A stretch of DNA of 7,855 nt, taken from a virus. Taxonomy: Duplodnaviria; Heunggongvirae; Uroviricota; Caudoviricetes. Location: the IMG/VR virus record IMGVR_UViG_2537561859_000010, one strand, 5' to 3'. Numbering within the stretch: position 1 is the first letter of the stretch; each line of letters begins with the position of its first letter. Under the pieces are notes generated by a model. That model saw only the letters and a program-made list of their open reading frames with translations, was not told where the DNA came from and made no database searches. The position numbers were made by a program, and so were the translations under genes. Of the stretch, positions 2,454-4,035 are shown piece after piece.

Positions 2454-2720
2454 ATGCAAGCTGTTTTTTCTTCCCCGTCTCCCGCTCCTGTAACGCCACT
2501 GATTCCGCTGCCGGACATCACGCAGGAGCGTTTTTTACGTCTGCCGGAAGTGATGCACCTGTGCGGCCTGTCACGCTCGACCATCTATGAACTCATCCGT
2601 AAGGGGGAATTTCCGCCGCAGGTGAGTCTTGGCGGTAAAAATGTGGCCTGGCTGCACTCTGAAGTCACTGCATGGATGGCCGGGCGCATTGCCGGACGCA
2701 AACGGGGGTACGACGCATGA
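2454..2720 (+). CDS. vis: Vis / AlpA-family helix-turn-helix DNA-binding regulator (excisionase-like)
   Basis: 88 aa with an AlpA-like motif ([48 protein letters not shown]). SD GAGG lies 8 nt upstream of the ATG. It is the first gene of the rightward operon. Confidence 0.8.
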
Positions 2721-3307
2721 TGATGCCTGTTCTGCAAAAACTCCCTTTTTCTGGCTTGCCTTTTTCCGGCATTTGCGGATATAGTTTTTCCGCTGCCGCA
2801 AAATCGGCAGCCGGGCGTGAGAACCCGTGTAACTCGAAGGCGACATATGACGCGCCATGCGTCTTTTTTTGTGTCGCAATCAACGCCACAGAGCGCCAGA
2901 TTATGGTGTGGCGTGTGGTTTGCCGTGCAGGTATGATCCTGTTCGCAATCACATGTTATGCCACTGAGTCAATGGTAGCTCAGGCGGGGCAGCCTCCGGG
3001 CTGGCCGGTATTCTTCGAGGCCGGTATTCTCACCCCCGTCTGGGCTATCGCCATCGAGCGTGAGAACTCCGGCGATAGCAGTTATTTGCTACTCGAAGGA
3101 GGCTGCCTTATGGCTACAACCCTTACCCCCTCACACCCTGAATTTGTCTTTGTGTTTGCCGCTGTCCGTCGCGCAGACCGTCATCCCCGTATCTGCATGC
3201 TTCGCACCGTCGCCGGTGATGAACGCAGTGCCCGCCGTTCCCTTGTCCGTGACTATGTGCTCTCCCTTGCTGCCCGTCTGCCGGTGATGGGGGTGTCCCG
3301 TGCGTAA
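2717..3307 (+). CDS. eta: Eta (long ORF containing kil in frame; translated only from upstream P_LL transcripts)
   Basis: Three consecutive ATGs (2717, 2720, 2723) preceded by GGGGG; the first overlaps the vis stop as ATGA. The frame stays open through the putative P_LE and leader to the kil stop. This matches the published nested eta/kil arrangement in P4. The N-terminal part has odd composition, so real translation is uncertain. Confidence 0.55.
2756..2785 (+). promoter_or_regulatory. Candidate P_LE sigma70 promoter (TTGCCT - 18 bp - TATAGT)
   Basis: -35-like TTGCCT (2756-2761) and -10-like TATAGT (2780-2785). A 7-bp stem-loop (2792-2811) sits at the predicted transcript start. The position is about 320 nt upstream of kil. 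Confidence 0.4.
2978..3045 (+). ncRNA. Candidate CI-like immunity RNA in the P_LE leader (boundaries approximate)
   Basis: A 12-bp stem (2978-2989 pairing with 3034-3045, two G-U pairs) encloses about 44 nt. The enclosed segment carries tandem GGCCGGTATTCT repeats whose CTTCGAG and TTCTCAC cores are complementary to repeated GTGAGAA / CTCGAAG elements upstream (2815-2840) and at the kil SD (3058-3099). Inferred from structure only. Confidence 0.3.
3110..3307 (+). CDS. kil: Kil (65-aa protein, nested in frame at the 3' end of eta)
   Basis: ATG at 3110 with strong SD GAAGGAGG 7 nt upstream. 65 codons, matching the published size of P4 kil, and it shares the eta stop. Confidence 0.7.
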
Positions 3308-3587
3308 TAAAAAAGCCCCTCAGACCGTCTCAGCGCGTCATGACGCCCGTGAACACCTCAGCATTGAGGCTTACCATAAGCTCAACCGCGCCAGCGCCGT
3401 ATCCCAGTTTGTTGGGGGTGATTTGATTCACCGTGAACTCTCCGGCCTGCATCAGCTCTACATTCCGCATATTTTCAGCTACCTGAATGAGGATATTGAT
3501 TTTGTGCTGAATGAGCTGAAAGCCAAAGGCCTGTGCCGTGATTTTCTCGCCCAGCAGAAAGACCGGGGAGACAAGACGCATGTTTGA
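3300..3587 (+). CDS. epsilon: Epsilon-like protein (P4 derepressor of helper prophage), 95 aa from a GTG start
   Basis: The ORF has no internal Met, so it starts at GTG 3300 (G-rich SD-like run upstream), overlapping the kil stop. Its position between kil and orf151 matches the P4 left operon. Product assignment is by position and size. Confidence 0.6.
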
Positions 3588-4035
3588 TTTTCCCCAGCCC
3601 GGTGAGATTTACCGTTCTGCCGGTTTTCCCGATGTGGCCGTGGTCGGCATTCTGGAAGACGGTATTCCGTGGGAAATGCCGTACCGCTGCCCGGATATTG
3701 TCTGGAACCCGTACCGCCGTAAATTCAGTATCCTTGTGCGTATCCTCGCTGACGGACGCACCACAGACATCCCGCTGGGGCGTTTTCTGCGGGAATTTAC
3801 CTGTGACCGTCCTGACCTGTTTAAACGCAGCCCCGTAAACCGGCATGCGGTACTGAAAGAAATGGCCGGAGACCCGGAATTACAGAAATGGCGGGAGAAA
3901 TATCTGGATATTTACCCGCAGGCCCCTGTTCCGGTCAGCCGGGCGGCACCGGTGGCGCGGGAATGGCGGGAAATTCCCCGCACGGAGTCTGACCCGGAAA
4001 TCACCCCGGATAACAGTTACCGCAATTATCTGTAA
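3580..4035 (+). CDS. Orf151-like hypothetical protein (P4 left operon)
   Basis: ATG at 3580 gives exactly 151 aa and overlaps the epsilon stop (ATGTTTGA). GGGGAG lies upstream. The GTG at 3538 offered by the ORF track has no SD. Confidence 0.65.
   Translation: MFDFPQPGEIYRSAGFPDVAVVGILEDGIPWEMPYRCPDIVWNPYRRKFSILVRILADGRTTDIPLGRFLREFTCDRPDLFKRSPVNRHAVLKEMAGDPELQKWREKYLDIYPQAPVPVSRAAPVAREWREIPRTESDPEITPDNSYRNYL

Follow-up and report, generated by a model that had tools for sequence, protein, structure and literature searches.

A hairpin displaying the downstream target of the CI antisense RNA shares an arm with the closing stem of CI in the immunity region of a P4-like satellite prophage

CI and C4 are a textbook case of phage immunity exerted by RNA alone. 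In a 7,855-nucleotide (nt) stretch of DNA from a Caudoviricetes record (IMG/VR IMGVR_UViG_2537561859_000010; the whole stretch is called the window, its first letter is position 1, and all features described lie on its plus strand), we analysed the region that governs immunity in a P4-like satellite prophage. Its main feature, the CI RNA of the C4 family, is already known. We found that a second helix, which competes with the base of the closing stem of this RNA, is the basal stem of a conserved hairpin displaying seqC, the downstream target of CI itself. As a structure, this shared-arm hairpin is well supported and has been kept across several gammaproteobacterial lineages, and in the literature that we examined it has received no more than a remark, as a possible terminator. 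For the role of the alternative fold we infer three candidates, namely target presentation, gating of CI maturation and an atypical terminator t4. We favour, at a probability of roughly 60%, a reading in which the hairpin presents the target to CI RNA in a bistable leader and also delays CI maturation.

A preliminary description of this DNA had paired GCTATCGC (3044–3051) with GCGATAGC (3072–3079) in an 8-bp helix. A base-by-base check bore this out and added C3052–G3071 as a ninth pair, so that the second helix consists of nine perfect Watson-Crick pairs (3044–3052/3071–3079), with arms that are 100% complementary and lie 18 nt apart. A perfect hairpin of at least 9 bp occurred in 12 of 2000 dinucleotide shuffles of 3034–3110. 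When the 9-bp helix was forced and the remainder folded, an inner helix (3056–3058/3067–3069) appeared that closes an octaloop (3059–3066); these elements together make up the seqC hairpin (also a2 hairpin, 3044–3079), identified by pairing, constrained folding and covariation. In isolation, 3044–3079 folds as a hairpin (−17.2 kcal/mol, z −3.2). Its 5′ arm is formed by the last nine nt of the predicted CI RNA, and the target (GUGAGAA, 3060–3066), which pairs with seqB of CI, lies in its loop. The helix had been proposed to sequester GTGAGAAC; this element, at 3060–3067, is instead situated in the loop of the second helix and is thus displayed, in an octaloop closed by a covarying 3-bp helix. 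Neither does the helix lie next to the Shine-Dalgarno sequence of kil, as had been stated, because it ends 18 nt before GGAGG (3098–3102; ATG at 3110), with another small hairpin in between.

Comparative evidence came from 80 P4-like loci in as many genomes, collected via the alpha protein (57–99% identity; many Enterobacterales genera). Their CI-to-kil region gave an alignment of 75 distinct sequences (A2; the 75 homologues referred to throughout), and a second alignment of 104 distinct sequences (A4) combined A2 with P4-like viral contigs and N15-like phages. The second helix was 99.1% paired in A2, with three pairs changed on both sides, and 99.0% paired in A4, with 4/9 pairs compensatory. 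The inner helix was 97–99% paired, with changes on both sides at two of its three pairs in A2 and at all three in A4 (97.4% paired). Over the whole seqC hairpin, 98.6% of A4 was paired and 7/12 pairs were compensatory, against 26–58% pairing in slid controls. Some of these double changes recur in unrelated backgrounds: A-U to G-C at 3050/3073 is seen in the P4 clade, in a Kosakonia locus (L033) and in an N15-like phage (L169), C-G to U-A at 3048/3075 in locus L065 as well as the P4 clade, and U-A to C-G at 3046/3077 in several lineages, with one further double change of the second helix in phiKO2. This covariation is not inherited from the other two helices formed by the same strands, since 3073 lies outside the downstream hairpin 3 described below and 3050 pairs with the 5′ arm of the CI stem only by wobble. 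Consistently, the second helix is 94.4% Watson-Crick and 4.6% G-U, compared to 79.5% and 20.2% for the seven competing pairs of the CI stem; a substitution in the shared strand is matched exactly by its downstream partner and accommodated through wobble pairing by its upstream partner.

The same arrangement was found well beyond P4-like elements. In phage P1, a hairpin starting from the last nine nt of C4 encloses the annotated a2 site (−17.0 kcal/mol, z −3.7), although it differs from that of the window in being interrupted by a mismatch and in having a2 partly paired; the PY54 counterpart folds alike (−20.7 kcal/mol, z −4.0), and the phiKO2 counterpart also folds. In the C4 alignment of Weinberg et al. 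(2010), taken with its flanks, a like architecture is present in an Acinetobacter sequence and in two more from gammaproteobacteria, NC_009567 and NZ_AAZF01000005: a basal helix from the end of the closing stem, an internal loop and an inner helix hold a2 in the loop, and RNAfold reproduces this. Weinberg et al. (2010) had remarked on the same overlap between hairpin and closing stem, as a possible constitutive terminator, without reporting covariation, the inner helix or the position of the target in the loop. The partners of the second helix are similar to the two strands at the base of the CI stem, a likeness for which a duplication could account, and the helix might on that ground be taken for a functionless product of chance or of sequence history; the repeated independent compensatory changes, the excess of pairing over the slid controls and the retention of the architecture in distant hosts make this scarcely credible.

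The RNA that lends its 3′ end to the hairpin was recovered at full length by the Rfam C4 model (RF01695; 2968–3055, model positions 1–87 of 87, 74.3 bits against a gathering score of 45, E 1.5e-13). With this score and near-identity to P4, the P4-type CI RNA proposed in the preliminary description is confirmed. The 12-bp stem given there for its closure (2978–2989/3034–3045) exists, with all 12 pairs present and two of them G-U (2980/3043 and 2984/3039), but these pairs are the inner part of a 17-bp stem that corresponds to the P1 stem of the C4 model. Its arms span 2973–2989 (5′; base check, Rfam, fold and covariation) and 3034–3050 (3′; base check and covariation), and 3044–3050 of the 3′ arm is common to the seqC hairpin. 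Within the stem lie the P2 hairpin (2990–3003, CAGCC-UCCG-GGCUG), the P3 hairpin (3004–3025), whose loop (3009–3020) carries the element b′, and the single-stranded junction seqB (also a′, UAUUCUCAC, 3026–3033), assigned by its complementarity to seqC and seqA. This C4-type fold, a long closing P1 stem with internal hairpins P2 and P3, is the minimum free energy (MFE) structure of 2968–3055, which folded alone gives a cloverleaf (−48.0 kcal/mol, z −5.35), and RNAalifold recovers the same. In A2, 99.7% of cells in the P1 stem were paired, with three pairs changed on both sides; P2 was 100% paired with 4/5 pairs compensatory, and the P3 stem was 100% paired and invariant. Covariation in P4-like homologues, the test put forward with the original proposal, thereby supports both helices.

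The record of phage P1 annotates the mature C4 as 77 nt, from the G after AU to ..CCACC. With these ends transferred through the Rfam alignment, the mature CI RNA would be 79 nt long (2974–3052), rather than the domain of about 68 nt described earlier, which is the part within the inner 12 pairs. The CC following the stem base (3051–3052) is invariant in the homologues and fits an RNase P-type substrate, in line with reports that cite CI and C4 as hairpin-type RNase P substrates (PMC5499578). Processing of the leader releases CI, whose pairing partners are seqA and seqC (PMC4825925); CI corresponds to the Rfam C4 family, and seqA to isrK (PMC3632133).

As had been noted, the second helix and the base of the CI stem are mutually exclusive, since they compete for 3044–3050; the overlap comprises seven nt of the 17-bp stem, but two nt of its 12-bp version. 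A further hairpin (hairpin 3, GAUAGC ... GCUACU, 3074–3093) is in competition with the seqC hairpin for its 3′ arm. Its stem (3074–3079/3088–3093) is 75% paired in this register, with three compensatory pairs, and other homologues use the register TAGCTG/CAGCTA. Because hairpin 3 uses the 3′ arm of the seqC hairpin, the four segments allow two states, of which state 1 combines the full P1 stem with hairpin 3 and state 2 a shortened P1 stem with the seqC hairpin. In the window, the two states have energies of −50.6 and −53.5 kcal/mol, respectively. The difference of state 2 minus state 1 averages +2.2 kcal/mol in the homologues (standard deviation 3.2), with state 2 favoured in 25% of them. These folding energies make a bistable leader plausible.

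Two other pairings of these strands came up in the folds. In constrained folds, the freed 5′ arm of the CI stem (2974–2979) paired with 3088–3093, a candidate that we rejected as a side effect of sequence similarity, since it is absent where hairpin 3 uses its other register. RNAalifold also pairs 3074–3078 (GAUAG, or GGUAG in most homologues) with a conserved CUGCC (3103–3107) that lies between Shine-Dalgarno sequence and AUG, and this pairing would enclose the ribosome site. The changes in this pairing are one-sided, with a double change in one sequence, which supports it weakly; it would be a fourth partner for 3071–3079.

The region has the hallmarks of an antisense-controlled attenuator or bistable leader, namely exclusive covarying helices, similar stability of the alternatives and an antisense site inside the switching region. 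In the plasmids pT181, pIP501 and pAMbeta1, an antisense RNA binding a loop steers exclusive helices of the nascent leader, and a canonical terminator follows. Here, in contrast, a U-tract follows in only 6/75 homologues, and the transcript itself is also the source from which the antisense RNA is excised. An experimental precedent for a bistable leader is provided by Gifsy-1 of Salmonella, which has a homologous leader, with isrK as the seqA-type and STnc1160 as the C4-type RNA, and in which mutations and native gels demonstrated that the read-through transcript adopts two alternative folds (PMC4825925). The helices differ from the one described here, in that they pair IsrK with the 3′ end of orf45 and control translation; the IsrK-type RNA acts in trans on the read-through transcript (PMC4825925).

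The preliminary description had regarded such alternative folds as typical of RNA switches. Two mutually exclusive and near-isoenergetic folds do exist, and one form of this idea would be a metabolite- or signal-sensing switch in which the second helix hides GTGAGAAC. The known effector, however, is the antisense CI RNA, and we saw no sign of ligand sensing. The element lies in a loop and not in a stem, which contradicts the sequestration part; a search of the window against Rfam at E up to 1 returned no riboswitch family; and there is no conserved unpaired pocket beyond the elements complementary to the antisense RNA, the sequences of which vary freely while remaining complementary. We therefore consider a ligand-sensing switch highly improbable.

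In the mechanism that we favour, CI, a C4-family antisense RNA, would be cut out of the transcript of the leader promoter PLE. On the nascent leader, the hairpin may offer seqC to the seqB of CI made earlier, for rapid pairing between a loop and a single strand, as the seqA hairpin would upstream. The seqB–seqC pairing, together with pairing of b′ to its downstream counterpart b2 at the ribosome site, would then block kil translation and stop transcription before the replication genes. At the same time, the hairpin would open the base of the P1 stem and bury the invariant CC, where RNase P-type substrates are recognised; with the base opened and the CC paired, the precursor should be a poor substrate for RNase P, and CI would probably mature only after removal of the 3′ trailer.

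Several results weigh against this mechanism. Averaged over the homologues, the full-stem state is slightly more stable, and the RNAalifold consensus is the full cloverleaf of state 1. Folding of 2950–3110, a check proposed in the preliminary description, gave an unconstrained MFE structure with neither fold, in which seqB and the P3 loop pair with seqC and b2 in cis; this outcome is not decisive, as folding is co-transcriptional. The P1 stem is also transcribed first, so that the seqC hairpin needs strand displacement, and seqC is accessible without the hairpin as well, so that presentation in a loop may not be required. Lastly, since both partners are inherited together, covariation is blind to whether the pairing is a hairpin in cis or a contact between CI and its target in trans.

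This last point bears on an action in trans, in which the 3′ arm of mature CI, after the seqB–seqC contact, would leave its own stem and pair with 3071–3079 of the target, locking the complex. The complementarity between CI and the downstream target does exceed seqB, with 15 of 19 positions matching between 3020–3038 and 3055–3073, among them GCCGG of the P3 stem against CCGGC at 3069–3073, and binding of CI could accordingly extend by invasion into P3 as well as the upper part of the seqC hairpin. Nevertheless, the order of the segments (seqB and the arm in CI, seqC and the partner in the target) forbids one continuous antiparallel duplex, the 17-bp stem must open, and the local hairpin is simpler and folds on its own, which together render the trans route improbable.

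Gating of CI maturation could also be the main function of the helix, rather than an accompaniment of target presentation. The helix, while attached to the trailer, would open the base of the P1 stem and pair the CC at 3051–3052, so that the cut by RNase P would await the removal of 3071–3079 by a 3′ exonuclease such as PNPase. The invariant CC indeed pairs with the GG at 3071–3072 in 95–99% of sequences, homology with phage P1 makes the 5′ arm of the helix the 3′ end of the RNA, and the RNase P substrate character of CI and C4 fits such a gate. Piazza et al. reportedly found in 1996 that CI maturation depends on PNPase. On the other side, hairpin 3 can free the CI stem without a nuclease, and recognition by RNase P alone explains the conservation of the CC equally well. 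We regard gating as the main function as possible, though unlikely.

Termination is the remaining candidate. In this version, the second helix would be the stem of t4, reportedly described by Briani et al. (2000) as an atypical terminator that lies between cI and timm, does not need Rho and depends on CI: anti-termination would fall to the base of the CI stem, 3044–3052/3071–3079 followed by UUAUUU (3082–3087) would terminate, and hairpin 3 would be a later competitor. Both P4 and the window have the UUAUUU within 2 nt of the helix, a transcript starting near 2792 and ending near 3087 would measure about 296 nt, and three mutually exclusive helices follow the logic of an attenuator. Weinberg et al. 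(2010) mark the equivalent hairpin in several C4 loci as a predicted terminator overlapping the 3′ half of the P1 stem. However, a terminator scan of 2650–3650 calls the upstream terminator t1 as the sole terminator-like site, the loop is 18 nt long unless the stem is taken as interrupted, and at least five T in the eight positions after the helix occur in just 6/75 homologues, while the helix is conserved in all of them, so that terminator use is at most clade-specific. The second helix does not show the combination of a G+C-rich stem, a short loop and a directly adjoining, conserved U-tract expected of an intrinsic terminator, and there is no clear way in which CI bound to the loop would favour the helix. 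As a terminator in general the second helix was consequently rejected, owing to the scan and the rarity of the U-rich tail, and its identity with t4 in particular is possible, though unlikely.

The seqC hairpin as a device of target presentation can be set in a wider and more tentative picture. The 3′ arm of the P1 stem may double as the 5′ arm of the target hairpin, so that each primary transcript would be bistable, with antisense maturation and the target hairpin mutually exclusive. Such a design, kept in P4-, N15- and P1-like elements and as far as Acinetobacter and other gammaproteobacteria, could underlie t4 and the PNPase requirement; we put it forward as a speculative and rather unlikely possibility.

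The target in the loop is part of a two-site antisense system. Two elements of CI, the junction seqB (a′) and the P3 loop (b′), are each complementary to one upstream and one downstream target. Upstream, seqA (a1) lies in a hairpin at 2812–2827, the second hairpin of the c4-a1b1 model, in which a CGGG/CCCG stem closes the octaloop CGUGAGAA (2816–2823), and b1 (CTCGAAGG, 2833–2840) is complementary to the P3 loop of CI, as seen in homologues. An exact complement of seqB (a1) is present upstream in 74/75 homologues, and b1 with at most one mismatch likewise in 74/75, always 16 nt after the start of a1. Downstream, seqB (3027–3033) and seqC (3060–3066) are 100% paired, with 6/7 pairs compensatory, and the P3 loop (3011–3019) is 97.2% paired with b2 (3092–3100), with 6/9 pairs compensatory; b2 lies in the kil ribosome site and overlaps its Shine-Dalgarno sequence, the two together spanning 3092–3102. 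The complements of seqB and of the P3 loop upstream, at fixed spacing, thus indicate the full two-site design known from phage P1, with a′ and b′ against a1/b1 and a2/b2.

The octaloop CGUGAGAA is identical for seqA and seqC (2816–2823 and 3059–3066) and closed by G-C in both cases, in hairpins that are otherwise unrelated. We also observed that the P3 loop and its targets b1 and b2 covary as strongly as seqB with seqA and seqC, and that a- and b-type specificities reassort within E. coli, where TTCTCAC, TTTCCAC or TTCCTAC occurs with at least four different loop sequences, which suggests combinatorial immunity types among P4-like satellites. The P3 loop of the window and its b1/b2 partners differ from those of P4 (UAUUCUUCGAGG vs UAUCCUGUGAAG), so that the b-type specificity differs. 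This loop is the only difference from P4 within 2968–3079; every stem of CI and the two arms of the second helix are identical.

The surrounding region is closely related to P4. Positions 2600–3400 of the window are 93.5% identical to phage P4 DNA (X51522; 800 nt), the E. coli H10 chromosome is 100% identical to the window, and related copies of the region occur in 1047 of 5426 complete E. coli genomes, about one in five. On the plus strand, three Rfam matches exceed the gathering score: C4, isrK and c4-a1b1. ORF88 matches the AlpA family, epsilon matches the Derepression family, an alpha open reading frame of 777 amino acids (aa) is present, and the gene order is that of P4, namely vis/ORF88, PLE, cI, kil/eta, epsilon and alpha. 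The layout PLE, seqA, t1, CI, seqC, kil/eta, epsilon, alpha is also the one described for the seqA-seqB-seqC immunity of P4 (PMC4825925, PMC3632133). With the C4 of phages P1 and P7 (RF01695; icd-ant operon), the window shares the cloverleaf, the two-site antisense logic and the position upstream of an Icd-like gene; the output in phage P1 is repression of icd translation and of ant, and in P4 premature termination of the replication operon.

At the start of the leader, a promoter scan identified PLE (2756–2785; TTGCCT, 18-nt spacer, TATAGT); the P4 record X02534 carries an annotation for the −10 hexamer at the corresponding position. A leader or IsrK-like short transcript (2792–2869; Rfam isrK RF01394, 70.7 bits against a gathering score of 50) carries the upstream targets and the intrinsic terminator t1 (2849–2870), a hairpin of the type GACGCG-CCA-CGCGTC followed by T7 that corresponds to the 3′ hairpin of the isrK model; the c4-a1b1 match (RF03163) spans 2779–2831 (50.4 bits against 46.7). 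The isrK match coincides with the short transcript predicted from PLE to t1, by which the IsrK-type small RNA of P4-like elements is the terminated leader with seqA and b1. In the alignment with P4, nine nt of P4 are missing from the window near position 2935, between t1 and CI, and nowhere in the leader is divergence greater than in the 40 nt preceding CI.

Downstream of CI, kil (3110–3307; 65 aa, Icd-like) forms the 3′ part of a long eta frame (2672–3307) in the list of open reading frames and carries the PGAP name 'host cell division inhibitor Icd-like protein'. Its product aligns with Icd of P1, PY54 and phiKO2, and single-protein searches returned close relatives of P1 and PY54 only. The eta/kil frame, on the plus strand, runs through seqA, CI and seqC; it is open past the 5′ end of CI in 91% of the homologues and past the promoter in 80%, compared to medians of 132 and 27 nt for the other two frames. 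The CI RNA gene is hence embedded in a conserved translatable frame. In RefSeq, both the old cI frame of P4 (NC_001609, 501–917) and the frame over the C4-type RNA of phiKO2 (526–702) are labelled as a 'transcriptional repressor' protein, where the immunity factor is an RNA, and none of the P4 or E. coli genome records examined carries an RNA feature at the immunity locus.

Among the sampled loci, four with 97–99% identical alpha proteins (L003, L004, L005 and L039) are filed under metagenome-assembled genomes that bear the names Ferruginibacter, Clostridiales, 'bacterium' and Ruminococcus; the contigs are short, and mis-binned E. coli P4-like DNA is their most likely origin. In one viral contig (L160), probably a truncated or rearranged element, a kil-like gene has lost its start codon, and the 150 nt before it bear no relation to the CI region.

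If the shared-arm hairpin serves target presentation only, it is an ordinary detail of a known system. If the sharing of the arm matters functionally, every leader transcript would face two rival outcomes, to become the repressor RNA or to display the target of that RNA, and two points reported for P4 immunity could then be put to the test, namely the dependence of a non-canonical terminator on CI and the need for a 3′ exonuclease in immunity.

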